64,000 nucleotides of DNA from contig OZ024759.1 of the NCBI GenBank assembly GCA_964016885.1, forward strand, positions 33,170,001-33,234,000, in the 5' to 3' direction. The notes below the pieces were generated by a model. The model was not told the origin of the DNA, made no database searches, and worked only from the letters and a program-made list of their open reading frames with translations. This DNA is from Eledone cirrhosa. Lineage: Eukaryota. Below, one piece after another: positions 3,871-64,000 of the stretch; the stretch's first letter is position 1; each line of letters opens with the position of its first letter. The position numbers and the translations under genes were made by a program.

Positions 3871-3871
3871 A

Positions 3872-3933
3872 TTTCAGCGAGTAGAAAAGGCGAAATGAAA
3901 CGCAAAAATCATATATATATATTTATATATTTG

Positions 3934-3989
<56 letters not shown>

Positions 3990-4037
3990 TATTTATCTTA
4001 TTTTTGCATTTCATTTCGCCTTTTCTACTCGCCGAAA
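3872..4037. repeat. Inverted repeat (38-bp arms) flanking a TA tract
   Basis: tttcagcgagtagaaaaggcgaaatgaaacgcaaaaat (3872-3909) is the reverse complement of 4000-4037 with 2 mismatches. Confidence 0.85.
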
Positions 4038-4063
4038 TGCGATTCTCGCTGAATCTATATTTG

Positions 4064-4107
<44 letters not shown>

Positions 4108-4226: not shown

Positions 4227-4690
4227 GCACACATAATTCCCTGTATGATAAATAAAGCTGACCTAAATGATGAAAAATAAATACGAATAAATACGAATAT
4301 ACGGCACTCGTTTCTTGACCATCTGCTCTAAGTTTGGATTTGAAATAAATCAACATTATATGTGAGGGGAAGTCGATATATTATCGCAGCATAGCTGTAT
4401 TTCTTCTCGTTTATCGTGGTAACAATGGCGTGATGGCTACGTAAAGCTGTCCAATTTAATTTCACAAGAGTTGATTCAGCTCATTCCGCGTTGAGTTCAA
4501 ATATTAGGTTAAATTACAGATTAAATTTGCCTTCAAACATTTAGCAGTTCATAAATAAATTACAAATCTATAGTACACAGGTTTTGGCGGAGTCTTTAAA
4601 GTCAGCAATATGGTGGTGTGCAGTATAGAATTCGAGCGTCGGGTAACTGAGGTCTAATAACCTGCCACAGGCCGTTAATATAATAATAAT

Positions 4691-4858
4691 GTTTTCTACT
4701 TCTGGCACAAGGCCAGCAATTATCCCAATGCCTTACTGGTACTTTATTTTATCGACGCCGTAAGGATGGAAGGCAAAGTTAGCCTCGGCGAGTTTTGAAC
4801 TCAGATTGCTGCAAAACATGGCGTCCGACTCTCTACCGAAACTTCCAATCCACCGCCG
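4691..4858 (-). mobile_element. tRNA-derived Meta-type SINE (family S1), internally deleted
   Basis: Matches other copies: A-box/B-box-like head, central ctttcatcctt..gtcgataaaataaagtaccag, 3' ggccttgtgcc..agtagaaac; flanking gttaatataat duplication. Confidence 0.88.
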
Positions 4859-4873
4859 TTAATATAATATAAC

Positions 4874-5014
4874 TGTTTCTCCTTTTGGCACAAGGCCAGC
4901 AATTACCCAGTACATTACTGGTACTTTATTTTATTGACCCCGTAAGGATGGAAGGCAAAGTTAACCTCGGCGGGATTTGAACTCAGAATGGCAAGGACCA
5001 TAACTCTATGCTGC
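4874..5014 (-). mobile_element. SINE S1, 5'-truncated, tandem to previous copy
   Basis: tgtttctccttttggcacaaggccagc...gggatttgaactcagaatggcaagg. Confidence 0.88.
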
Positions 5015-5499
5015 AATATAATCAAAAGAGAGATTAGGAAAAACATTCTATCCTTAGTCACATTTGGGCATCACAAGACTAGTTGATTTTACAAATACTC
5101 CATATTCCTTTGTGGTAGACTGTGAAAATACAACTTAGAAAGTCATATCTAAACACAACATAGCATTTCGTCCAACGATTCTAGTGATACAGCCAATTGG
5201 ACACCCTTTAGTTTCTTATATCAGAGCTGCCATCCTCTAAAGCTCCATGGAGAGTACCATGAAAAAAAGGGTCCCCAAAACGGGGAGAAATAAGGCAAAA
5301 TGGGAAGATTTTACATAATGAAAGCTATACCCATTTTCAAAAGAGAAGACATCTTTCACCTACCCCAAAGTGGGTGGGAGATCTCCCTGTCCGACGGGAA
5401 GTATTGACAGGTCTGTTACATAGACACAAGGACTGACATTTTTGGTAAGCAGAATGTCAGTTTTATCGACGGATGTTCTTAATTAATAATTCATATTAA

Positions 5500-7536: not shown

Positions 7537-7938
7537 CAATATTTTCATCATGAACATAAATGTAAAATGAGTTCCTATGAAATGAATAACTGAAGTAAGG
7601 AGCCTACGGCTAGAATTTGGTAGCCATATTGAATAATGCCAATAAATTAACCTGTCCATTCATAGTTATAAACTAAAGTCAGTGTAATGAATTACCATGA
7701 AAGCAGATATAGCAATTAATTTGTAATACAATATGTACGCCATCTCTTGTAACAAACCTTAGTTACCGCAGTTAAGGCTGGAGTATCTCACATAGCCATA
7801 TGAGATATCATATAAGATATTATACGAGATATCATATGAGATTATATATGAGAGGAGGCCATATAAGAGGTCATATAAGATGCTAGAAATAACCAAGAAA
7901 TCTCATTTACACATTAGCATGACATCTGAAAGGAAATG

Positions 7939-8109
7939 GTTTCTACTTTTGGCACAAGGCCAGCAATTACCCAGTACATTATTGGTACTTTATTTTATCG
8001 ACTCCGTAAGGATGAAAGGCAAAGTTAACCTCGCCGGGATTTGAACTCAGATCGTAAAGGGACGTAACTATGCTGGAAAGCATGTCCGATCCTCTACCGG
8101 TACTGCCAA
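7939..8109 (-). mobile_element. SINE S1
   Basis: Near full-length match; aggaaatg TSD on both sides. Confidence 0.9.
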
Positions 8110-8540: not shown

Positions 8541-8847
8541 CTTTTATATAACCTTAAATAGATGAAAGGCAAAGCTGATCAAATGATAGTCTAAAGTAAA
8601 AGAGGGTCAAATATATTGGGGTTGAACAAAAATCGCCATAGTTGCAAAACCAACACGCTAACCACATACCCATACATGAACATATATAAATATAACTGTA
8701 TTTATTTTGCCCGAAACTGGAATAAATATTATATAAAACATCTGTGACACAACATACTTTCAAAACAATCAATGATTGGATAAATAATTTATTTAGAATA
8801 AATTTGGTATATCAGTGGCGTATACTGTAAAAAACATGTTTTCTGAG

Positions 8848-9221
8848 AAAAGCAGTATTGTCAAGACGTTCCACTAGGTTGGCTAGCTCTTCTTTTTTCC
8901 CTGCTATATCATCTATGTCGTCAGCAAAACGAAAGTTCATAACAGTCGTGCCGCCAATGCTGACTGTTCTTTCATGTCCTTCTAGTGCGTCTGTCATAAT
9001 TCTCTCTACGATGTTGGATAGAGCAAACATCCTTGTCTTACCCCGACTGTGGTTCTGAACCAGTCCCCGACGCTGTTGTTTAAGTAGAATGCGCTGATGG
9101 CCTTGTCATATAGGCTCCATATCACCCTGATCAAGTTACCATTGATATTGTACAGTTAAATTGTGGCCCACAGTGTTGCGCGCCAAACCTTGTCTAACGC
9201 CTTCTTGTAGTCCGCGAAGTC
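8848..9221 (-). pseudogene. Non-LTR (RTE-like) reverse transcriptase fragment
   Basis: Minus translation DFADYKKALDKVW..FRTTVGVRQGC..IGGTTVMNFRFADDID, with stop and frameshift; RT motifs QG and FADD. Confidence 0.9.
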
Positions 9222-11154: not shown

Positions 11155-11660
11155 CCCTCTTATTCTTGGGAGAGCCGTGAGAGAATATTCCTCAAACACT
11201 CCTCCCAGCGTATTCTGTCAGAAACAACCGTCTCCAACAGATCCAGCTGGATCCCTTAGCGAGATCAGCCAAGCTCATGGATTTTATCCAACCAACGTGC
11301 TGGGGCTCTACGCCATTGACTATTGCTTGTTGGTTTTGTCCGTAAAATCTGTCCAGCGATTCTTTCCTGAGACATTCTAACCACATGCCCATAGCATCAG
11401 AGCTGTGATCTCACAATTCGGAGAAGTAGCAGCTTTACCTTGAGTACTCCAGCGATTCCTTCCTGTGACATTATAACCACACACCCATAGTATCGGAGCT
11501 GTGATCTCACAATTCGGAGAAGTAGCAGCTTTACCTTGAGTACTCCAGCGATTCCTTCCTGTGACATTATAACCACACACCCATAGTATCGGAGCTGTGA
11601 TCTCACAATTTGGAGAAGTAGTGGCTCTAACTGGAGTGACTCTCTCATCACAGAGTTTGT
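11155..11660 (-). mobile_element. RTE-like LINE 3' remnant with internal 96-bp triplication
   Basis: Translation IVRSQLRYYG..MSQE (post-RT region) and WLDKIHEL..SDRIRWEECL..LSQE*; homologous to 17770-17905. Confidence 0.7.
11353..11620. repeat. 96-bp tandem repeat x ~2.8
   Basis: ccagcgatt units start at 11353, 11449 and 11545. Confidence 0.92.
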
Positions 11661-12400: not shown

Positions 12401-12812
12401 AACAGCTGTAATTAGCCTCTTAAAAGATTTACAATCAATCAAGCATATACGGAAATAATCTTGTAGGAAACTCAAAACATCTCCTGAGACATCGGGTTTA
12501 CAAAAAGACAAAAAAACAAAATGTCTGCACACAAAGAAAAGTATTGTAATTTCAGAATTTATGAGGAAAATCTTTGAACGTAGACCATATTTTGTAGTTA
12601 ATACCCGTCTATTGTTTCGTTGTTCTGTTAATATTATGTTTTGTATGTTGGTATGTCGCTACATCAGTCAGATGTGGTTTTAGCGTATTTAACATACGCC
12701 TTATATATATATATATACACATGTAAAGACACATATATACATATAAATATGTGTTTATATACATATATATATAGTAATAAAATAAATTTTAATAAATATA
12801 TATATATATATA

Positions 12813-12935
12813 TAGGAACGAGTAGGACCCCCACGAGTGGGGTCCTACTCGTTCCTATTACCCACTCTACTACCCCAAGTATTGAGTACTTTGGTGCGTT
12901 ATGGTCCACCTGGTTCCTTACCACATTTCCTTCGT

Positions 12936-12966: not shown

Positions 12967-13301
12967 ATGTGGGGGTGTATGTGTGTGAATGGCCAGAGAC
13001 ACCGGCTACAACAGCCACCCCACCTGGTGGGGTTCCTTCACCAAACTGTCCACCGTCTTTCCCGATTTTACATAATACACCAGCCGTCCTGGAAACTGAT
13101 CGAGTTATAATATAAATACACCATTGCTAAATTGGCTCTATCATATTCTAAGTAATTTAAAAGCAGTAAATATCAGTGGTATGGTGAGGAAATGGAAGAT
13201 TATATAGGGAGGAGGAGGATTAAGACCGTCTCCGTATATCTACCACCTCGCTATTTTCACAGTTCAAGCCCCTTCAATGATACATCATCTTTCATTATTT
13301 C

Positions 13302-13490
13302 AAGGGCGGTGGATTGGCAGTATCGGTAGAGAGTCGGACGCCATGCTTTCCAGCATAGTTACGTCCCTTTACGATCTGAGTTCAAATCCCGCCGAGGTTG
13401 ACTTTGCCTTTCATCCTTATGGGGTCGATAAAATAAAGTACCAGTAATGCACTGGGTAATTGCTGGCCTTGTGCCTAAAGTAGAGACAAT
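13302..13490 (+). mobile_element. SINE S1 full length
   Basis: ggcggtggattggcagtatcgg (A box), gagttcaaatccc (B box), Meta-like core, 3' end. Confidence 0.92.
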
Positions 13491-13506
13491 TATTTCAAGG
13501 GCAAGA

Positions 13507-13645
13507 ATAGAGTTACAGCCCTTGCCATTCTGAGTTCAAATCCCGCCAAGGTTAACTTTGCCTTTCATCCTTATGGGGTCGATAAAATAAAGTACCAGTA
13601 ATGCAATGGGTAAATGCTGGCCTTGTGCCAAAAGTTGAAACAATC
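13507..13645 (+). mobile_element. SINE S1, 5'-truncated, tandem
   Basis: agagttacagcccttgccattctgagttcaaatccc..; tcaagggc(aaga) recurs at ~13300, 13495 and 13649. Confidence 0.9.
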
Positions 13646-14217
13646 ATATCAAGGGCAAGACATATATTTCCATCCCAGTACTAGAAGTCGATTCTTTTAA
13701 AAAAAAAATCGGATGTGTTCTGATTTCGAAAAGTCAAGGTTCCACCATGTTTAATATGACAAAGATACACCATTTATCAAGAAGGTGTCCCTCCCCCCTC
13801 TGTAGCTAGAAGTAATCACTATTTATCTTTACCTAGCGAATACCAGTCATATGCTACCACCCACATTGGAGCATTTATTGAATAATTACCATTTTGCTCA
13901 CACGATTCCTACCCAATATTAATGTGAGAATTCTGAATTCTGCTCTGACCAACTTTAACAGAAATCTACTCTCTACAACAGAAATCTATGATCGAAGTGA
14001 AATTTGAAGGAAGAATGTATAATGTTAGTGGGATTTAAGTTATCTTAGCTGTGAAGCAATATTAGTGACTGAAGGGTCAGAGTTTCAGGCTTAAACCGAT
14101 CGATAATTGTTCCCCTAAAATATATGTGTATTGCACATACATTGGGAGAAGGAGGCTTACACAAAATATGTTTGGGGTGACATTTAGTAGTGTAAACTTA
14201 TACATATATATATATAT

Positions 14218-14569
<352 letters not shown>

Positions 14570-15078: not shown

Positions 15079-17756
<2,678 letters not shown>

Positions 17757-17769
17757 TAGAGATAGATAG

Positions 17770-17905
17770 ATGGTTGGTTAAAGTCCATGAACTTAGCTGG
17801 TCACGGTTGGGGACCCAACCGGAGCAGCTGGAGAGTTTGCTTCTGACAGGACCCTCTGGAAGGAGTGTTTGAGGGCTCTGCCCCTACGACCCTCTCAGGA
17901 AGTAG
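17770..17905 (+). mobile_element. RTE-like LINE 3' end fragment
   Basis: [34 protein letters not shown], homologous to the minus-strand copy at 11155-11295. Confidence 0.65.
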
Positions 17906-17965
17906 GGACTACGTAGTTTTGATATAAGAACTGATTTTGCTTCACGTTGTTTTTCCATATGTTGT

Positions 17966-18028
<63 letters not shown>
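17966..18028. repeat. (GAT)n microsatellite
   Basis: About 21 perfect units. Confidence 0.95.
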
Positions 18029-18029
<1 letters not shown>

Positions 18030-18270
18030 GAGAAGCAGGGGAGAGGGGGGATCCTAGGAGGTAGTGGAGAAGAGGCCTTGTAGCATACTTTTTATATACT
18101 GACGACGATGATGATGATGATGATGATGATGACGTCGACAAAATTATGTGACATGCAAAAATAATGACCTCTTTAAGTAGTAATTTAAAAGAAATGTCAT
18201 GTTCTACACTATACACACACACACATATATATATAAATATATAAACATACACACATGTGTATAAATATAA

Positions 18271-18305
<35 letters not shown>

Positions 18306-18577
18306 TAGATGTATATACATACATATATATATATCTATATAGATACACATATATATCTATATACATACACATATCTATGTGTATATATGTATGTATATAT
18401 ATATATATATACATATATATCTATATACATACACATATCTATGTGTATATATGTATGTATATATATATATATTATATATATATATATATATATAAGTTAT
18501 TCCGGGTTGAATCGGAGGTAACCACAGTAAGTAAGGTACTCAATACATTGCAGAGTATAACAGTTTTAATATAGATG

Positions 18578-18628
18578 AGATTCTACAGGACTAGTACTGT
18601 TTCATTCTTTAGAAATCATCAGGAATCT
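18578..18628 (-). ncRNA. Type I hammerhead ribozyme motif
   Basis: AGAUUC-CUGAUGA-U UUC UAAA GAA U-GAAA-CAG UACUAGUC CUG-UA-GAAUCU. Confidence 0.85.
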
Positions 18629-18689
18629 GGGTATCAAAATATATATATATTTATATATATATAAATACCATATTTATTTTTTGATACCC

Positions 18690-18740
18690 AGATTCCTGAT
18701 GATTTCTAAAGAATGAAACAGTTCTAGTCCTGTAGAATCT
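18690..18740 (+). ncRNA. Type I hammerhead ribozyme motif (predicted cut after GUA, 18734)
   Basis: AGAUUC-CUGAUGA-U UUC UAAA GAA U-GAAA-CAG UUCUAGUC CUG-UA-GAAUCU; all three stems pair. Confidence 0.85.
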
Positions 18741-18754
18741 CATCTATATTAAAA

Positions 18755-18789
<35 letters not shown>

Positions 18790-20016
18790 TATTTTTTCCT
18801 TTTCAATTTATGTCGTTTACTTCATTCAAATCATTGTTTGTCAGTGCTGTTGATTTGTTGTTGTAGATTTTATATATATATTTTTAAAATACTTTTTCAT
18901 TAATGTTCGTTGTTGTTGTTATTGTTATTTTTGTTGTTGATATTTCAGCTGTTTAATTTTTGTCATTTATATATATTTATAAAATTTTATTTATTTGAAT
19001 TTTATTTTCGTTTTAAATTTTTTACTACTCGATTCATTTATTTATTTATGCAAGTTTAAGTTACCAGGGAAACGATCAATACGTTAAATTAATGACTATC
19101 ATAAACATTTGACAGGAAAAGAGGGACACAAAAAAAACAATAAAACACAAACGTAAGTTCATCGTTAAAGTAGTTTAAAAAAGTGTAAATATACACACAC
19201 ATTTTCGTATGGTTTAATACAATTTTGAATAAATTTCGATAAGTATCTTTGAGTTATATGTTGTTTAAATATATATTTTTTAATGAATTAATGTCAATAT
19301 CATTGGTAGCTTTAATAATTAGATATAATATGTACATAATTGTTTTTCTATATTTTTTCTTCAATTTAAATGGCGTCGAATTTTAAGAAAAGACTTGATG
19401 GATCGCATTTGTTAATATATTTATATTTTATTGCAATGGATATGATGACGAATTCGCAGAAACTTTTCTGTGATGAGGTGAATCACTTACGATATTTGTT
19501 TCACTGTAAATACATTAATATACCCCTGACACCATTATGAAATATATTCCATACGGTAATCTGATATCGATTTCATATTAGCCCTGTATTTAACCTGAAC
19601 CTCGTTTTGATTATTTCCACATCGCTCATATTAATTCTATTTGTAATTTCGCTAAGATGATAACCGATAAATCTCGCGACGCATGATGCCTTTCTTTCAG
19701 AGGACCCCATGAGGAATTGTCACAGCTTCCATTTGCCTAGATAAACTCAAAAAGAACAGCAACTACCAAACGCGTGTCAGAGACAGCTGAAAAGAGTTCT
19801 ATGGTGTTATGGTCACAGCAAAAGAAGGACAACTGAATCTAACACTATATATATATATAATATTAGGTACAAATCAAGTTGTTGAGGCAATCACAAAGCA
19901 CTCAATATAGCGATATCTTGATACATTACCGTCTGGAGTAAGCAGAACATTAATAATGTGTGACACCAAGAAAAACGACATATACCACAACAACGATAAA
20001 TGCAGAAAGGTTAAAA

Positions 20017-20051
<35 letters not shown>

Positions 20052-20201
20052 GATTTTGAGTATATGTTGGTTGTATACCAACATCTCAGTATGCAGGCTG
20101 GAGCACTCGACGAAGTGGGCAGGTTGGTTTGGTTACTCCGGAGTAATGTAAAATAAAGTAAAATAAATCAATCAAATGTTTAAAATTTAGCTTCGTTTAT
20201 T

Positions 20202-20256
20202 ACTGCTATATATATTTCGGTGACAGCCATCTTTGGCTGTAACCTCTTCAGGCAGT
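20202..20256 (-). ncRNA. Type I hammerhead ribozyme motif
   Basis: ACUGC-CUGAAGA-GGUUACAGCC AAAGAU GGCUGUCACC-GAAA-UAUAUA-UA-GCAGU, then AAUAAA. Confidence 0.88.
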
Positions 20257-20394
20257 TTGAATTAGTGTGGTATAGACAAGTACATATGTTGTTGAGGTGT
20301 ATAATTTTGTCAATACTCTGATATGCCCAGTTCCTGGTTGGGTTGTTATTTCACTGAGGAACTGGAATCATATGTCTATACCATACTAATTCGG

Positions 20395-20449
20395 ACTGCC
20401 TGAAGAGGTCACAGCCAAAGATGGTTGTCACCGAAATATATATAGCAGT
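20395..20449 (+). ncRNA. Type I hammerhead ribozyme motif (predicted cut after 20444)
   Basis: ACUGC-CUGAAGA-GGUCACAGCC AAAGAU GGUUGUCACC-GAAA-UAUAUA-UA-GCAGU; AAUAAA at 20450. Confidence 0.88.
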
Positions 20450-20495
20450 AATAAACGAAGCTAAATTTTAAACATTTGATTGATTTATTTTACTT

Positions 20496-20565
<70 letters not shown>

Positions 20566-21089
20566 TGGCTGCCAACTCGTTTTCGAGAACCCCTACCGAA
20601 GCGCTGAACGAGTGTGACTTTTTAGTCCAGCCAGCGACTTAAAAACTCTGGTACAAACACTACACTTGTGACAATTATTGACACATAGTGCTGGGCCCAT
20701 GGTACCATGTGAGGACAAGTGCAGAGAGATCTCCAGATATAAAGCAATGCCTGTGCCGTGAAGCTTTTATAGTGAGCAAAGGCACTGCACAAAGCCAGTC
20801 CCACTCTCTTAACCAAGATGATATTTACCAAAAAGAAGAACAAGTCAACATCATTGGATACCATCAGGGTTGCAGGTGTTATATCAGAGGTTTCCTTGTC
20901 CTAGAATTCTGCCTTGACAAAGGCTAAGGGGTCATCTCTCCAGGTGATTTTGGATGGCCATTGACTCTTAAGAGCTCCTTTGCCCTTTGACAGGTTTTGT
21001 TTTTAGTCCTGCAGGATGTCCAAAGTCACCCTCCTTACCAAGAAACCTTGGTGGGGTTGCCAGTTTAATCGCCAACGACCCGACCATGA

Positions 21090-30027: not shown

Positions 30028-30029
<2 letters not shown>

Positions 30030-30217
30030 CGAAGGAAATGTGGTAAGGAACCAGGTGGACCGTAACGCACCAAAGTACTCAATACTTAGGATAGTAGAGT
30101 GGGTAATAGGAACGAGTAGGACCCAGACGGCTCAGCTCAAGCCGTTTCGACAGCTAATTCTGGACTCAAAATTAGCTGTCGAAACGGCTTGAGCTCAGCC
30201 GTGGGGTCCTACTCGTT

Positions 30218-30221
<4 letters not shown>
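30028..30221 (-). mobile_element. TA-embedded fold-back element, family A, with half-hammerhead
   Basis: Homologous to 14218-14406; palindrome centred on gacagctaatt..aattagctgtc. Confidence 0.87.
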
Positions 30222-30276
<55 letters not shown>

Positions 30277-31717: not shown

Positions 31718-31738
31718 TTCATATATATATATATATAA

Positions 31739-32125
<387 letters not shown>

Positions 32126-32828: not shown

Positions 32829-32956
32829 TTGTTATACTTGGGGCGGGTGATATTTGTGTAATATTGCCAGAATTAATAACAGAACACACTCACTGTTTGG
32901 TTGATTTCTGTTATTAATTCTGGCAATATTACACAAATATGACCCTCCCCAAGTAT

Positions 32957-32961
<5 letters not shown>
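32829..32961. repeat. Fold-back, 56-bp arms with ~21-bp spacer
   Basis: 32829-32884 versus 32906-32961; ends in (TA)n. Confidence 0.88.
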
Positions 32962-33018: not shown

Positions 33019-33074
33019 TTGTTCGGATCTAGCTGTCAAAACGGCCGGAACGCAGCAGTCGGGGTCCTGAACCT

Positions 33075-33080
<6 letters not shown>
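33019..33080 (+). mobile_element. Diverged family A-related half-hammerhead island
   Basis: agctgtcaaaacggc..gcagtcggggtcc between TA tracts. Confidence 0.55.
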
Positions 33081-35299: not shown

Positions 35300-35377
35300 T
35301 ACATACATACATACATACATACATACATACATACATACATACATACATCGAGGTATCATCGTGTACGTAGAAATAAT

Positions 35378-35566
35378 TGTTTCTACTTTTGGCACAAGGC
35401 CAGCAATTATCCAGTGTATTACTGGTACTTTATTTTATCAACCCCGTAAGGATGAAAGGCAAAGTTAACCTAAGCAGGATTTGAACTCATACCGTAAAGG
35501 GTTACAACTCCATGCTGCAAAGCATGGCGTCCGACGCTCTACCGATACTGCCAATCCACCACCCTT
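35378..35566 (-). mobile_element. SINE S1 full length
   Basis: Family match; TSD gtgta(c/t)gtagaaataatt. Confidence 0.92.
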
Positions 35567-35584
35567 GTGTATGTAGAAATAATT

Positions 35585-35770
35585 ATTTCTACTTTTGGCA
35601 CAAGGCCAGCAATTATCTCAGTGTATTACTGGTACTTTATTTTATCGACCCCGTAAGGATGAAAGGGAAAGTTAACCTCGGCGGGATTTGAACGCAGAAT
35701 GGCAAGGGCCGTAACTATATGCGTCAAAGCATGGTGTCCGACCTTCTACCGATACTGCCAATCCACCGCC
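35585..35770 (-). mobile_element. SINE S1 full length, tandem
   Basis: Family match; third TSD-like copy atgtatatagaaatatt at ~35773. Confidence 0.92.
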
Positions 35771-36311
35771 ATATGTATATAGAAATATTACTGTTACAAA
35801 GTTTGTCATGAATTTAAGACACATTTCTATTACTGCAATTACATGTCTAAAATTATAATTCCCAGCTACAACTATTATGAAGCATGACTTTGCTTGTATT
35901 GACGCTATATGTTTCTGTTAGCAATGTAGGAATTTTTTTTTTATAATTCTCTCATACATTGTATTAGGGTGTGTGCTTGTTTAATTGCTATAATTAAGTT
36001 CATTTCATTTTGATATTGCCAGTTTAAAAATGTAGAAATGTATATATATATGTGTATGTGTGTATGTGAAAGTGTATGTGTGTGTGTCTGCGTAGCGTGC
36101 GTGTGTGTAGTGTATGTGCGTGTGAGTGTGTGTGCGTGTGAGTGTGTCTGTGTGTGCGTGTGAGTGTGTAGTGTCTGTGTGCAAATTTCATCTGCCAATA
36201 TTTCTATATTCATCTATGTATACATCCTATTGCGTATATATGTGTAAATACACACACCTTTAAATATATATATATATACCCACACACACATACATACATT
36301 TTTAAGTACGG

Positions 36312-37080: not shown

Positions 37081-37353
37081 ATAAAGATATATATATGTAT
37101 ATATATATATAATAAAGATATATATGTATATATATATATAATATAAATATATATGTATACATATATATATATATATTATAAATATATATGTATACATATA
37201 TATATTATAAATATATATGTATACATATATATATATATATTATAAATATATATGTATACATATATATATATATACTATAAATATATATGTATCCATATAT
37301 AATATAAAAATATATATATAATATAAATATATATGTATATATATATATATAAT

Positions 37354-37439
37354 TGTTTCTACTTTTGGCACAAGGCCAGCAAATACCCAGTACATTACTG
37401 GTACTTTATTTTATCGACGCCGTAGGGATGAAAGGCAAA
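37354..37439 (-). mobile_element. SINE S1 3' half
   Basis: Family match, truncated by TA tract. Confidence 0.88.
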
Positions 37440-37470
37440 TATAATATAAATAATATATATAAAATAAATA

Positions 37471-37522
<52 letters not shown>

Positions 37523-37550
37523 TATATGTATGTATATAGATTATATATAT

Positions 37551-37589
<39 letters not shown>

Positions 37590-37752
37590 TATATATATGT
37601 ACATATGTAATACAGAAGTGAAGAATAACATGGATCGGCTGTACAGTAGGGTTTATATATATATATCGGAGTAGTTATCCACACCACAATTACCTCCAAC
37701 ATAGCAGATCTCACCAACCCACAAACCGAACCGAAACTTGGCTTCTAATAAC

Positions 37753-37937
37753 TGTTTCTACATTTGGCACAAGGTCACCAAATACCCAGTGTATTACTGG
37801 TACTTTATTTTATCGACTCCGTAAGGATGAAAGGCAAAGTTAACATCGGCGGTATTTGAACACTTATCATAAAGGGCCGTAACTCTTTACTGCAAAGCAT
37901 GGCGTCCGAACTTCTACCGATACTGCCAATCCACCGC
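37753..37937 (-). mobile_element. SINE S1 full length
   Basis: Family match; TSD cttctaataac. Confidence 0.92.
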
Positions 37938-39909
37938 TTCTAATAACATCAATTTCTTCCTCAAATTGATTACCCTCTGTCTTCTATCAGTTGTTATAAT
38001 AGTCCTTATCAGAAGTCAACTCAACCAATATATACAAATCATTTTCTAGTTTCTTAATCAGATCTCATTACGTTCTTACTACAACAGAGACATCTTTTTC
38101 TTCTCAGCCGTTATCTCTAATTTTTCATTTAATTCTATTTATATGTTCATTTATTTATTGTCATTATTTTCATCATTGTTATTATTATTGTTATTATTGT
38201 TATTATTATTATCATTCTTCTTCTTCTTATTATTATTATAATTGTTTTTGTCATCATTATTTTTACTGTTGTTGTTATATTCTAGAATGGACATATCTCT
38301 GATGGCAATTCTTTTTCTATTTTTTTACGAAACAAATACATTAAAAAACATACAAACACAAACAACGCACATATCCCCCCACCCCCACACACATGCGTAA
38401 GCACACACACACAGACAACGCATACATCTCCCACACACACATTACACATTCTTTATATTAAACAAATACACACAATCTGCCACAGACGGAAGTGAAACAG
38501 ACACAATGACACTCAGACAATACAATAATACAACACACTTTACATAAATAATGAAATTTAAATAAATATATAATCAAAGAAACAAAATAAAAAAACAAAA
38601 TATTTAAATAATAAAATAAATAAATAAATAACCAACCAAATAAAAATTAAAACAAATTAAAAAATTAATAAAAAAAATCAAATAATTAAAAAATAAATAA
38701 TCAAATAGATATAAAAAATTAAAACAAGTGAATATCAGAAATTAAAAATGAAGATTATCACGAAACAAGAAATGCCGAAAGCCGATATATGTCGTACAAA
38801 TATAATTTATCCTTAAACTACTCATTGCATGGTTATATATCTTATTCCGGGAATTATTTATTCAATATTTTTGTTGTTATTTATTTTGTATTTGGCGGGA
38901 GTTTAGTTATTGTTTTTTTACTGTGTTTATATGTTAGTTTGTGTTTGTGTGTATGCTTTTTAGTTTTTGTTATTTTCTTTTTCTTTCGTCCTATATTCTT
39001 CTTCTTCTTCTTCTTCTTCTTATTATTATTATTATTATTATTTTCTTTTGGGACAATTTGAAAAATACGATTTAAATTACAAATTAATGATAGAATCCTA
39101 CGATGGAATAACAAAAAAAAATTAAAATAAACATTTAGATTTCATTTCTGCTTTGTTTTACCAAATCAAAAAAATATACAAAAAAAGACACGGAAAACAC
39201 CCCCACCACCACCATTCTTTCCCCATTCTCCCTGTCTCTCTTGTTTTATTGCTGCGATCAGATGTTAATAAAAAAACATGATTTTTAAATAATTAATCTA
39301 AACGACATGTAAACAATTCTTTATATTTTGATATTTGTTCATTTTATTTATTAATTAAAAAAATTACTGTTATTATTATTATTATTATTGTAATTGTTGT
39401 TGTTGTTGTTACTAATTGATGGACTCTTTAGATTGCTAACGATTTGGTCGGTTAGACGTGTCACTGTTTATGCAGAAGCTCTCATGATATTTTTACAAGA
39501 ACCGATTTTAAAATAAAACCCAAGAGATATTGATACGAAATTCGATGATAAGCGTTCCTGATTGAGTATTGGGAATCAGACAATTGCATCACAAATTCAA
39601 ATAAAATCCTCTCCTGATAACTGGAAGCCTAATCTGTAATGTTCAATATATTGCCTTTAATAGGAAGTATATACTGAATAAATAGTCTATAGTTGTATAT
39701 ATAATGAGCTGTTTATTAGCCACACAGGTCTCACATTAAGAAAATATTAAAGAAGAAACTTAGAAAAGACCAGCATTTTTTTTATATATATATATATATA
39801 TATAATTTCAAGTTATCAATAATGTAGTGATAATATATCGTCTCGTTAGAGATGAACAGCGTACATGTAGGTTTGCTCAACGAGTATAAATTATATTTCG
39901 GAGAAAATG

Positions 39910-40477
39910 TAGAAAAGATGAATATAAAATGAAAGTGCTTTTATAGAGGAATTTATTAGGTATTGACATATGTTTTTGTAACAGACGGAATACCTGCTTG
40001 CGTAATCATATAATGTTAGCAAGAATTCGATAGCAAATGTATAATCAGTTGTCACTTCTTCAGAGATATTGGATAAATTGGAAAAAATCAGAAAAATTGA
40101 AGTATTTATATTAGTTGTAAGAAAGGAAGAAGAGAGGGGATAGTATATGACAGATAACACTTCAATTTGTTGGTAAACAAGTATATAGAAGGTTTTTAAT
40201 GAGAATACAATGAGTATATGGGTTATTTTATCTAAATAAGAATTTTAGGAGTGCCTATTTTAATCTATATTTGACCAATTGAACAATGGACAGGGCTGGT
40301 CGTTTGGTGTAGTAGTATTAATACAGATTTAATTATAGATTTGCTATCGAATACTTGCTAACATTATATGATTACGGAAGCAGCGATACATAGGTATTCC
40401 GTCTGTTACAGAAACATATGTCAACACCTAATAAATTCCTCTATAAAAGCACTTTCAATTTATATTCATCTTTTCTA
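39910..40477. mobile_element. Fold-back PLE-like element, ~140-bp inverted arms with core-deleted hammerhead relic
   Basis: Arms 39910-40045 and 40332-40477; AGGUAUU..GAAA-CAUAUG-UC-AA(C/U)ACCU-AAUAAA; ends in (TA)n. Confidence 0.75.
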
Positions 40478-41519: not shown

Positions 41520-41940
41520 CAGAAAAACACTTGCGCGAGTTGAAATGGAAAGCTTGAGTAAATCCCTCGAAGACGATGCCAGTCCATTGCAGGGTTAACC
41601 CCCAGCTGTTGCTGGTACTCATTTTCAATTGAGTATAACTACTATAGCAACATGAAATGAAGTGTTTTGCTTAAGAACACAACACACATCCCAGCCCAGG
41701 AATCGAAACCACGACATTATGATCTTATGTCCAACACTCTTACCATTAGGCCACGTAACACCAAAGAACACAACACAGAACCTAACTCAGGAATCGAACC
41801 CACAGCATTATGGTCGTAAGTCCAACATCCTTACCACTAGGCTACGTAACTTCAGAGAACATAACACACAACCCAGCCCAGGAATCAAACCCACAACATT
41901 GTCATCGTAAGTCCAACACCATTACGACTAAGCAAAGCAC
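41520..41940 (-). mobile_element. S2-type SINE with triplicated tRNA-like head
   Basis: Body gcagggttaacccccagc..ctggtactcatt..aagtgttttgcttaagaacacaac, then three ~90-bp units containing caggaatc(g/a)aa(a/c)ccac (B box, reverse strand). Confidence 0.75.
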
Positions 41941-45817: not shown

Positions 45818-46094
45818 GATATAACGTACATATATATATGTGTGCATGTATGTATATATACATACTACTGTACGTCTGTATACATAAATGTATGTACGTA
45901 TACATACTTATATTTAAGTAACAGCCGTACTAAGAATGAGTGACAAATGAAATTTCGTTTCATATTTTCCACTTTTCGTTTTCGGTACTCCGGCCGATTA
46001 ACTCACATGATATGCAAATTAGGCTGCTCAGCCGTTAATATGCATAATGAAAGTATATACTTTCAGACGTTCCATCATCTGGCAGGAAGGTATA

Positions 46095-46135
46095 CGGTGC
46101 TGACGATAGCTAATAAGCTTGAAACTAGTACATTG
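46095..46135 (+). ncRNA. Minimal type I hammerhead ribozyme motif (predicted cut after GUA, 46130)
   Basis: CGGUG-CUGACGA-U AGCU AAUA AGCU U-GAAA-CUAG-UA-CAUUG; palindromic ACUAGU stem III. Confidence 0.82.
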
Positions 46136-48178: not shown

Positions 48179-48247
48179 GCCCGATTTGTAGGAGATTAGG
48201 AGAGGGAGAGGAAACTGTGGCTCACATCCCATGAGAGTGTAAACTGA
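48179..48247 (+). pseudogene. CCHC zinc-knuckle-like fragment of an RLE LINE
   Basis: PICRRLGEGEETVAHIP*EC resembles CRxCxxxxETxxHIxxxC. Confidence 0.6.
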
Positions 48248-48374
48248 ACAATTTACCAGAATTGGTGGTGGAAAACAACTGGGTGAAGGTATTATTGATC
48301 ATATCTATATCATACGCTACAATATCAGAACATATATATTTATGTATATATATATATGTATATATTGGGGGAGA

Positions 48375-48420
<46 letters not shown>

Positions 48421-48422
<2 letters not shown>

Positions 48423-48471
48423 GCTTTTACAGGACTAGAACCGTTTCATTCGTGAGAAATCATCAGAGCAT
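48421..48471 (-). ncRNA. Family D hammerhead motif as an isolated 51-bp island in (TA)n
   Basis: AUGCU-CUGAUGA-U UUC UCAC GAA U-GAAA-CGG UUCUAGUC CUG-UA-(AA)AGCAU. Confidence 0.78.
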
Positions 48472-48557
48472 TTATATATATATATGCATACATATATATG
48501 TATACACATATATACATATACACATACACATATATACATATATACATACATATACAC

Positions 48558-48592
<35 letters not shown>

Positions 48593-48791
48593 GATACATA
48601 TACATATATATATATATATATACACACACACTCTCCCCCATATATATACATATATGTATATATATATATACATGAATATATATATATATACATGAATATA
48701 TATGTTCTGATATTGTAATGTTTGATATAGATATGATCGATAATTAGAGAGAGAGAGAGAGAGAGAGATAGAGAGAAAGTGAGAGAGAGAG

Positions 48792-50065: not shown

Positions 50066-50079
50066 TGAGTGTGTGTGTA

Positions 50080-50235
50080 TCCTTGGTTCAATCTGGGGCG
50101 ACCACAGTAAGGTACTCAACATATAATAGAGTATATACAATATTTAATATAGAAATGGCTTCTACAGGACTAGAACTGTTTCATTTGAAGATCATCAGTA
50201 AATCCAACTGGCATAGACAATAAAGAAAACAAAAA
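50080..50235 (-). mobile_element. Family D element with hammerhead core (50157-50205), weak stems I/II
   Basis: CUGAUGA-UCUUCAAAU-GAAA-CAG UUCUAGUC CUG-UA-GAAGCC; shares accacagtaaggtactcaa with ~18520. Confidence 0.75.
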
Positions 50236-50352
50236 TATATATGTGTACGTGTATATATGTTTATATATATATATATATAAACATATATACACGTACACAT
50301 ATATCTATATACATATATATAAAAGTATATTTGTATAAACAACATATAACAA

Positions 50353-50416
<64 letters not shown>

Positions 50417-50646
50417 AAACATATTTAAAACATGACTGAATCTTAACCATCTACTATGTCAGGGTATGCCATGCATCATCTTGAGGACGTACTGTTGAAC
50501 TTAACTCAGTACCTCTGAAATATGTATAATAAAATATAATTGATCACAAGAATATCTGTTTTGTTAATATGTTGAATTAATATTATATATATATATATAT
50601 ATGAGAGTATTGAAGTTTGCTTGAAGACTTGTGGAACAATAAGTAA

Positions 50647-50765
50647 ATATCTTTAAGTCGTTTGGAAGCCTCGACGTACACCCACTTACATCTCTCTCTC
50701 CACCACCGGACCTTGTTACCCGGAGATTTACCCATTTGCATTGTCGAGGCTTCCAAACGACTTAA

Positions 50766-50771
<6 letters not shown>
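50647..50771. repeat. Perfect 29-bp inverted repeat with 67-bp spacer
   Basis: atatctttaagtcgtttggaagcctcgac / gtcgaggcttccaaacgacttaaagatat; ends in (TA)n. Confidence 0.9.
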
Positions 50772-52770: not shown

Positions 52771-54110
52771 CATACTATAAAAGGAGAACAATATCTTCTG
52801 AGTTCGTGATGTATCTCTAATTATATATATAAAATCAATTTTCTCACTTGGCCTGGGAGAACGAGCATAACAGATCGTTAGACTCCGATTGTTTTCGGCG
52901 AAAGTTAATTTGTAAAGTCAATTATTGTATGATGCATATAATAGACGAATTGAAAACAGTTTTGTACCAATATATTTGGTGATTCAATAAACCGAAAATT
53001 AACTAGTGCTGACACAAATTACACTTTAATTAACCTCTGTGAAAACTTTCATATCAAAATTGTTTTCTGTGTATACATGTATACATATGTTTGTGTATTT
53101 ATGTATATATATCTGTGTATTTGAGCATATATATATGTATATATATATTAGTGGATTTGTATGTATGTATATATATATTTGTATGTATGTATATATATGA
53201 GTGTGTGTGAAAAGATGTATGTATATATACATATGTGTGGGTCTGTATATATATATACAGAGAGAGAGAACAGAGAGAGAGAGAGAGAGAGCGAGAGAGC
53301 GAGAGAGAGATTTATATATATATATATATATATAGGTATATATGTGTGTCTCAGTGTCTGTCAGTGTGTTTATGTGTGATATGTGTGCTTATGTATATAA
53401 ATAAATATGTATGTGTGTATGAATATGTGTATATTATGTATCTATATCTCTCTCTCAAAAATATGCGCACACACACACATATATATATATATATGTCTAT
53501 CTCTCTCTCTATATATATATAAATATATATATATGTGTGTAAGTGTGTGTTTATGTTAATGCCAGCATTATTTCCACTAAATTAATTACGACAATATATT
53601 CATTATATATTGTTTGTTAATTATGCAATTTACATGTAAGATATCAGCCATGTTCTGTTAATTAGAAAAGATGAGTTTTCCATATTTAATTAATATTTAA
53701 CGTTTTTCAAGCCATAGTTATTCTCTGTTGTTAGAATGTTTCCTCGGATGCGTTTATTGTTGTCGTTGACCTTGTTATTGTTGTCTTGATTGTTGTTGTT
53801 GGTGGTGTTGAATCTTGGTGTCTTTGTGAATCTTGCTGTTGTTGTTGTTGTGTTTCTCAATCTTGTTATTGTTGACGCTGCTGTCATTGTTGTTGTCCAT
53901 TCCCGGATCAGGCCATAAATTAATAATCCGATGATTTCAATACAGGTTCTTATATACGAGGTTCGTATCTGGTCTTGTCTATATGGTAAAATAAATCCCT
54001 TAACGAAAGCATGGTAATACTACAGCATGTGATACCAATAATTATAACATCGACTCTATGATAAACGTTGATACTGTATCTCACTACTATATATTATATA
54101 TATCATACAA

Positions 54111-54298
54111 AGGGCGGTGAATCGGCAGTATCGGTGGAGGGTCGGACGCCATGCTTTCCAGCATAGTTACGTCCCTTTACGATCTGAGTTCAAATCCTGC
54201 CGAGGTTGACTTTGCCTTTCATCCTTACGGGGTCGATAAAATAAAGTACCAGTAATGCACTGGGTAAATGCTGGCCTTGTGCCTAAAGTAGAAACAAT
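54111..54298 (+). mobile_element. SINE S1 full length
   Basis: Family match; TSD atatatcataca. Confidence 0.92.
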
Positions 54299-54348
54299 TA
54301 TATATATCATACATATATATATATATATATACATGTATATATATATGT

Positions 54349-54416
54349 ATGAAAAGAGACAGAACCCCGACGGCCGAGCTCAAGCCGTTTCGACAGTCAT
54401 TTTTGGACCTCATATA

Positions 54417-54418
<2 letters not shown>
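54349..54418 (-). mobile_element. Family A-related half-hammerhead island
   Basis: Reverse strand: ctgtc-GAAA-cggcttgagctcggccg-TC-ggggtt. Confidence 0.65.
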
Positions 54419-54478
<60 letters not shown>

Positions 54479-54649: not shown

Positions 54650-54655
<6 letters not shown>

Positions 54656-54850
54656 GGAGGTGAGTTTTATTGTAGTACAATAAAGCAATGCAGATATCGG
54701 ATAAGAAGCACTCTACAGTTTGTAGGACTGGAGTATACATAATATATAAGAACAAAAGATGGTTAAAGGAGTTCCATGTATTTTATTATGCGCATTTTTT
54801 GAAATGCGCATAATAAAATACATGGAACTCCTTTAACCATCTTTTGTTCT

Positions 54851-54860
<10 letters not shown>
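54650..54860. mobile_element. Fold-back element, family C, perfect 59-bp arms
   Basis: Arms 54739-54797 and 54802-54860 with 4-nt spacer; GAAA-UGCGCA-UA-AUAAAA at the apex; left end also present reversed at ~51716-51745. Confidence 0.85.
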
Positions 54861-54914
<54 letters not shown>

Positions 54915-54980: not shown

Positions 54981-55160
54981 TGGATTGGCAGTATCAGTAG
55001 AGAGTCGGACGCCATGCTTTCCAGCATAGTTACGTCCCTTTACGGTCTGTATTCCGATCCCGCCGAGGTTAACTTTGCCTTTCATCCTTACGGGGTCGAT
55101 AAAATAAAGTACCAGCAATGTACTGGGTCTTTGCTGGCCTTGTGCCAAAAGTAGAAACAA
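54981..55160 (+). mobile_element. SINE S1
   Basis: Family match, inserted in (ATT)n. Confidence 0.92.
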
Positions 55161-55425
55161 TTATTATTATTTTTATTATTATTCTAAAGTGGAAGAATTT
55201 CATTATGGTGTTGAAATGGCATAGAACGTTGAATAACCCATCTGGTGGTGATTAAGTGGCAGCTAAATTGTCTGTGGTTCTTATTTTATGTAAAAGGAGG
55301 TTATAGCGTTAGGTTATGTAATAAACATTGGACAATTACTTCTTTCGACAGGCAATTGATGATTTAAGTGTCTGTTTTCTGTACTTCAACAATGATCACT
55401 TTCAAGTGGTCTGTCCTTATTTTAC

Positions 55426-63790: not shown

Positions 63791-63977
63791 GGCGGTGGAT
63801 TGGCAGTATTGGTAGAGGGTCGGACGCCATGCTTTGACGCATAGAGTTACGGCCCTTGCCATTCTGAGTTCAAATCCCGCCGAGGTTAACCTTGCCTTTC
63901 ATCCTTACGGGGTCGATAAAATAAAGTACCAGTAATACACTGGGTATTTGCTGGCCTTGTGCCTAACGTAGAAACAG
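63791..63977 (+). mobile_element. SINE S1 full length
   Basis: Family match; TSD gttatttaactggaagg; an extra 3' fragment at 63711-63740. Confidence 0.93.
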
Positions 63978-64000
63978 TTATTTAACTGGAAGGTTTATTG

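Follow-up and report, generated by a model that had tools for sequence, protein, structure and literature searches.

Two divergent hammerhead motifs on a fold-back in Eledone cirrhosa DNA: probable scar of a truncated, inverted Penelope-like element insertion

At positions 18495-18755 of the 64-kb stretch of DNA analysed here (the window, to which all positions refer), two inverted copies of one short sequence, each with a type I hammerhead core, point away from each other between two (TA)n tracts. This fold-back is very probably the scar of a single truncated, inverted insertion of a Penelope-like element (PLE) into (TA)n, because the inverted 5'-truncated copy, the one-sided tail and the microsatellite target together correspond to the published footprint of PLEs. 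According to the available sections of Craig et al. 2021 (PMC8557442) and of a guide (PMC8969392), PLE insertions (i) bear an inverted 5'-truncated copy at their 5' end, (ii) have a tail of 30–40 bp, often at one end only, and (iii) show a bias for microsatellites or (TA)n that hides target duplications. For Schistosoma, the accessible part of Cervera and de la Pena 2014 (PMC4209133) describes dual minimal hammerheads on opposite strands, about 100–700 bp apart, and links these opposite-strand pairs to truncated PLEs.

Results

Anatomy of the fold-back

The features of the locus are collected in Table 1. Alignment of the two 77-nt arms gave 76 identical positions out of 77, in agreement with the near-perfect inverted arms of the preliminary description, and exact inverted repeats reached at most 13 nt when 17500-19800 was shuffled 100 times. 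The sole mismatch opposes position 18595, in loop III of the left arm, to its mirror. That description gave no account of the tail of the left copy or of the (TA)n at both ends. A predicted 5-bp hairpin with an 11-nt loop stands at the start of the tail and is found again in a second copy of the same family, hereafter family D, located at 50 kb, and the tail is homologous to 50078-50139 of that copy. About 24 nt at the start of the spacer are TA-rich filler; the last ~15 nt probably belong to the right copy, as element sequence from further upstream, and the spacer aligns loosely to the sequence upstream of the 50-kb copy. The simple repeats of the left flank extend to about 18205. Both outer ends of the fold-back sit in (TA)n, where a target duplication is not discernible, and a tandem repeat scan (TRF) returned no tandem units at the locus.

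Table 1. Features of the fold-back and its flanks (window positions)
Feature	Position	Strand	Basis and details
(TA)n microsatellite, left target flank	18400..18494		TRF, period 2, 48 copies; sequence
One-sided 3' tail of the left copy, 68 nt	18495..18562	-	absent from the right arm
Left arm, 5'-truncated copy with type I hammerhead	18563..18639	-	alignment and core
Left hammerhead, stem I to stem I	18578..18628	-	C3 18622, G12 18603, loop II 18608-18611
Spacer, 39 nt, AT-rich	18640..18678		sequence
Right arm, inverted tail-less copy with type I hammerhead	18679..18755	+	alignment and core
Right hammerhead	18690..18740	+	C3 18696, G12 18715
(TA)15, right target flank	18757..18786		TRF

Hammerhead cores and their predicted fold

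A full, outward-pointing hammerhead had been proposed for each arm, and at the sequence level all core elements are present: both arms read outward as CUGAUGA...GAAA, with the A15.1-U16.1 pair and a GUA triplet, which defines a type I core with an open stem I. Stems I, II and III comprise 6, 3 and 4 bp, respectively; stem II follows a U10.1-U11.1 mismatch, a known tolerated variant according to the accessible text of PMC3088659, and carries a 4-nt loop II, and the 8-nt loop III is built around a CUAG palindrome. Stem I is prolonged by a distal 8-bp helix that links both ends of the arm. The core sequence places the predicted cleavage sites after 18734 on the (+) strand, the very site given earlier, and after 18584 on the (-) strand. 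A hammerhead descriptor matched five times in the 64-kb window and not at all in each of 30 shuffles. Covariation was calculated on just four window copies: 86% of the cells were paired and two stem I pairs had changed on both sides, with a score reached by 33 of 500 shuffles.

The Rfam hammerhead models gave no match at gathering across the window. At E≤10, the 36 matches obtained for 18480-18780 included no hammerhead; they corresponded to hairpin-shaped miRNA and other models, all below their gathering scores, and are explained by the arm duplex. The Rfam result bars filing in an Rfam family and leaves the assignment to the hammerhead motif class standing.

The predicted probability of the three-helix monomer fold was 0.0005 for the right hammerhead and 0.0035 for the left one, and the stem III self-dimer was predicted at -12.8/-15.2 kcal/mol versus -1.4 kcal/mol for the monomer hairpin. 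These values predict a hammerhead that would act weakly, either with the help of a protein or by dimerising via its palindromic loop III. Dimer-acting PLE hammerheads are reportedly the topic of Lunse et al. 2017. A strong stem III self-dimer combined with a weak monomer is expected for PLE hammerheads, which act as dimers according to the available portions of PMC4209133 and PMC6765202; that of PAc, a Poseidon element of Anolis carolinensis, needs its protein for activity (PMC11167929).

Scans of sequence collections retrieved the hammerhead core pattern from none of the viral contigs and none of the prokaryotic genomes. A single metagenome match (L001) was discarded as a chance occurrence, since it lies in protein-coding sequence and is devoid of an upstream CUGANGA. 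A sigma-70 promoter scan of the locus scored below chance, and its model is inapplicable to an animal.

Family D in public sequencing runs

The segment 18495-18700 was compared with four of the 12 listed public runs at a likeness of at least 80% (no RNA run figures in the list, which carries no weight as to expression); 18631-18700 was skipped as repeat, and the read evidence covers the left copy to 18630, stopping short of the arm-spacer-arm junction. Family D is present in high copy number: matches in organism A amounted to 7835 contigs in run X1, which may be the source sample, and to 6300 reads in run X10, a RAD-seq run from another study, in which read counts differ from locus counts. Reads at least 99% like the 18-kb stretch numbered 164 of these 6300. 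At 18595, the letter of the right arm was found in 3403 of 3765 X10 reads and in 93% of the X1 depth. The right arm therefore bears the family-majority letter and the change at 18595 is private to the left arm.

The 3' ends of family D are of two kinds, tailed (18496/18497) and tail-less (18562), and each kind adjoins (TA)n: among the X10 loose ends listed, those that pass into TA-rich repeat include 18496 (443 reads), 18497 (548 reads) and 18562 (431 reads). The right arm of the fold-back ends at the point equivalent to 18562, the tail-less end of the family. Among the X10 differences listed for 18581-18630, variation is concentrated in loop II, whose four positions (18608-18611) all vary, the others being 18595, 18597 (225/3686 reads) and G12 (328/3577 reads); no listed difference touches the loop III palindrome or any of the six positions paired in stem II. 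Strand-switch joints are few among the family D read matches listed, at least four in number.

The runs labelled organisms B and D each contributed one near-identical contig (18562-18630 with one other letter, and 18553-18630 with two). These contigs (runs X4 and X6, from two other organisms) suggest that the subfamily, or the 18-kb insertion, may span species.

Other family D copies and fold-backs in the window

The window is AT-rich, microsatellite-laden DNA of animal type. It contains more than ten copies, some in tandem, of a ~190-nt repeat (4671-5016, 7935-8109, 13294-13676, 35361-35790, 37340-37953, 54092-54313, 54981-55183 and 63791-63984 among its sites), which we take to resemble cephalopod SINEs. 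A frame with a FADD motif at 8815-9105 (-), presumably akin to a fragment of a LINE reverse transcriptase (RT), gave no Pfam match, and a single C2H2 zinc-finger-like stretch at 20596-20766 (-) (E 0.00035) stayed below the Pfam cut-off. Two tandem repeats, at 11352-11642 (96 nt) and 41673-41933 (91 nt), are without a hammerhead core.

In addition to the 18-kb locus, family D is found in the window at 50078-50210, as a tail and one hammerhead, and at about 48180-48745, as a larger fold-back; the window copies other than the 18-kb one align at roughly 73–77%. A short near-perfect palindrome around (TA)n lies at 50234-50300, just upstream of the 50-kb copy, and a solitary minimal hammerhead match with a CUAG loop III is found at 46094-46128 (+), outside any fold-back.

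An inverted-repeat scan of the window yielded 17 rows, from which 11 fold-backs were kept: two rows with arms more than 1.2 kb apart, two in CA/TG repeats and one (20 nt) inside a SINE-like repeat were removed, and two rows of one repeat were merged. In all 11, a microsatellite lies no more than about 4 nt from one arm, and the second arm continues for 32–112 nt (ten cases) or for over 140 nt (one case); the GA run at 48745, which adjoins the 48-kb fold-back, was identified by eye. Several spacers measure just 0–21 nt. The inversion point varies, being inside the ribozyme in three fold-backs and at or near the cleavage site in one, and where it falls accounts for the hammerhead content of each. 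Complete cores on both arms are thus present in two of the 11, the 18-kb locus and 20149-20502, 1.4 kb away; 48291-48744 has one complete core, the fold-backs at 14296, 30106 and 54734 have the 3' half only, that at 12812 has post-cleavage sequence only, that at 39910 has a candidate core start within its spacer, and the descriptor search found no hammerhead sequence in the other three. The second two-core fold-back (20052-20502; C3 20251- and 20400+) belongs to a different family from D and has 130-nt arms with five mismatches, a 94-nt spacer and a 97-nt one-sided tail.

Family B (members at 12812-12935, 14219-14407, 30029-30222, 31730-31830, 33020-33080 and 54350-54420) is cut within the ribozyme and consists of the 3' half of a hammerhead, whose stem III is long and palindromic. 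Its 77-nt tail has an 8-nt motif and a hairpin start in common with the family D tails; six of the ten matches of this motif (1.1 expected) fall in such tails, and the four others (7130, 11440, 11536 and 42023) are outside recognisable tails and were set aside. Other families account for additional fold-backs, likewise tailed on one side, at 3871-4070, 32829-32961, 39807-40477, 50603-50771 and 54650-54865, and the start of the fold-back 54734-54865 immediately precedes the GAAA of a minimal hammerhead. The (+) strand arm at 12839 starts on the first base after the predicted cleavage site of its family, and the inverted arm near 48469 starts 2 nt after the predicted one; in these two cases only, run-off of the RT on cleaved RNA is possible.

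Age and decay of the arms

The preliminary description took the single mismatch as the sign of a young insertion. One mismatch in 77 is compatible with this proposal and leaves it unproven: its 95% interval spans 0.03–7%, the other ten fold-backs have 27 arm mismatches in 641 nt (4.2%), a rate at which P = 0.16 for at most one mismatch in 77, and runs labelled as two other organisms also contain near-identical arms. In family B, the decay between arms (7/129 nt) matches the divergence between copies (4–6/97 nt), and thus gives no sign of a selected or homogenised pairing; such a match is expected of arms that are identical at first and then decay neutrally.

A model for the insertion

In the PLE scenario, a reverse transcriptase/GIY-YIG protein provided in trans by a PLE would nick both strands of the TA tract and two cDNAs would be primed, one from a distal RT start, with the tail, and one from a proximal RT start, without it. 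Synthesis of both cDNAs would stop at a distance of 17–35 nt from the catalytic core, on its upstream side, and the two 5'-truncated ends would be joined head to head via the TA-rich filler. The arms would have been identical at insertion, with one later change, in the left arm, and the hammerhead would be cargo of the pseudo-LTR of the element. We propose that one distal and one proximal RT start leave exactly one arm with a tail. In the work of Frangieh et al. 2024 (PMC11167929), a purified PLE protein nicked both strands of AT-rich DNA and extended them, and the tail corresponded to the sequence that separates two RT start sites. Much the same scar would result from a single cDNA with a template switch. 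We rejected snap-back priming from the base of stem I, as it would have produced a second copy of the tail.

Several observations count against the PLE reading: the tail measures 68 nt (32–112 nt in the neighbours) versus the published 30–40; the TA run of the spacer is also expected from two separate insertions; covariation among the four window copies is weak; stem III is longer and stem II shorter than in the minimal type of Schistosoma; strand-switch joints are few among the read matches listed; and the window has no linked RT/GIY-YIG gene, none of its 102 frames matching the RT or GIY-YIG Pfam families. The wider proposal, that the 11 fold-backs of several families in 64 kb record, at very high density, PLE integration by two-strand priming from distal and proximal RT starts, and that arms starting at or near the cleavage site (12839 and about 48469) reflect RT run-off on RNA cut by the ribozyme, is a tentative one that we regard as doubtful.

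Discussion

The fold-back could also have arisen from two independent insertions of the same subfamily, in opposite orientation, into one (TA)n tract, the central TA being leftover target. The TA-rich part of the spacer would fit, as would the abundance of the family and its targeting of (TA)n; however, two arms alike at 76 of 77 positions would have to be drawn from a family in which so few X10 reads come within 1% of the 18-kb stretch and the window copies are only roughly 73–77% alike, and the pairing of a tailed with a tail-less arm would have to recur in ten other fold-backs, several of them with spacers of 0–21 nt. We hold this explanation to be very improbable.

Equally, the fold-back itself might be mobile, as a MITE-like or ambisense ribozyme element copied as a whole. 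The long, near-perfect terminal inverted arms and a ribozyme on each strand are what such an element would present, and the inversion involves element sequence in two of the three family D loci of the window (18 kb and 48 kb). Nevertheless, the inversion point differs among loci and families, which leaves no fixed boundaries; the 50-kb copy has a tail and one hammerhead only; and at the 18-kb locus the one-sided tail breaks the terminal symmetry and tandem units are lacking. A mobile fold-back is accordingly highly unlikely.

The same low standing is given to a selected device, whether an off-switch acting on the ribozyme by antisense or a siRNA source domesticated against the family. Part of the earlier proposal on which it builds was confirmed: a transcript of either strand would contain one ribozyme and its antisense, with the antisense arm transcribed first in both cases, and the hairpin is predicted to outcompete the ribozyme fold by 79.9 (+) and 79.7 (-) kcal/mol. 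Furthermore, inverted Penelope copies in transgenic D. melanogaster give rise to siRNAs matching the inverted regions, according to the available part of PMC3681739, and a run of organism B contains an arm that is nearly identical and has no tail. In contrast, a built-in off state as the function of the fold-back finds no support in the comparison with its neighbours: all 11 fold-backs are alike in architecture with the inversion point anywhere, four neighbouring ones are cut inside or after the ribozyme, and the arms of family B have decayed as much as its copies have diverged. In the one PLE tested, moreover, mutating the ribozyme left insertion in vitro unaffected, and RNA-seq showed no ends at the cleavage site (PMC11167929). 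If the fold-back is a PLE scar, read-through RNA at the locus would form a 77-bp duplex that would silence the ribozyme and could feed siRNA production, both of which we infer to be by-products.

An assembly or library fold-back artefact has next to no probability: the read coverage stops short of the junction and TA tracts make inverted repeats difficult to assemble, but an artefact would have copied the private letter of the left arm, whereas the right arm has the family-majority letter and ends at the tail-less end point of the family.

As the scar of a PLE insertion, the 18-kb locus alone matters little, being one of many left by a known class of retroelements. It calls for caution, in that divergent hammerhead pairs in TA-rich animal DNA would be insertion by-products rather than riboswitch-like devices. 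The regularity of one tailed arm in 11 of 11 fold-backs provides a natural dataset for the unsolved mechanism of PLE insertion and, if true genome-wide, would allow sequence counts to address the formation of inverted pseudo-LTRs and the cutting of PLE hammerheads in vivo.

Comparison with known systems

Octopus vulgaris has 31 recently active Penelope-like families, according to the accessible part of PMC13282606. In mostly non-subscription literature, supplements aside, we found no account of such hammerheads in cephalopods, and the main text of a 2026 paper on Octopus vulgaris repeats mentions neither hammerhead nor ribozyme; family D may already stand in published consensus libraries, which are placed in supplements. 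To our knowledge, Naiads are without canonical hammerheads. Targeting of (TA)n would point to Neptune, as far as the available text of PMC8557442 goes.

With hammerhead-bearing EN+ PLEs, as described in the available sections of PMC8557442 and PMC4209133, the 18-kb locus shares the inverted 5'-truncated copy, the tail at one end, the (TA)n target, a type I hammerhead with a palindromic loop III, the opposite-strand pairing and the high copy number. Its tail is longer than the one reported there (68 nt, not 30–40, PMC8557442) and, compared with the minimal type of Schistosoma (PMC4209133), its stem II is shorter (3 bp, with a U-U base) and its stem III longer.

Like the inverted Penelope copies that act as siRNA sources in Drosophila, at least in the portion of PMC3681739 that is available, the locus is a long inverted repeat that would form dsRNA; the arms at 18 kb, however, are only 77 bp long. 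The accessible parts of two reports on animal non-LTR retrozymes (PMC7229834; bioRxiv 10.64898/2026.07.22.740005) describe, as here, short protein-free AT-rich repeats with a type I hammerhead, probably derived from PLEs, and helix II of an axolotl retrozyme has a mismatched U-U at its base, as in the 18-kb hammerheads (PMC7229834). Retrozymes are nonetheless described there as head-to-tail tandem arrays that yield circular RNAs, whereas the 18-kb locus is head-to-head without a tandem unit.

In PAc (PMC11167929), the ORF starts inside the hammerhead, whereas both ATGs of the 18-kb core reach stops within five codons. PAc and family D have in common two classes of 3' end that differ by the tail, AT-rich targets and a stem-loop near the inner start, and the extension of both strands by the PAc protein would account for a fold-back.
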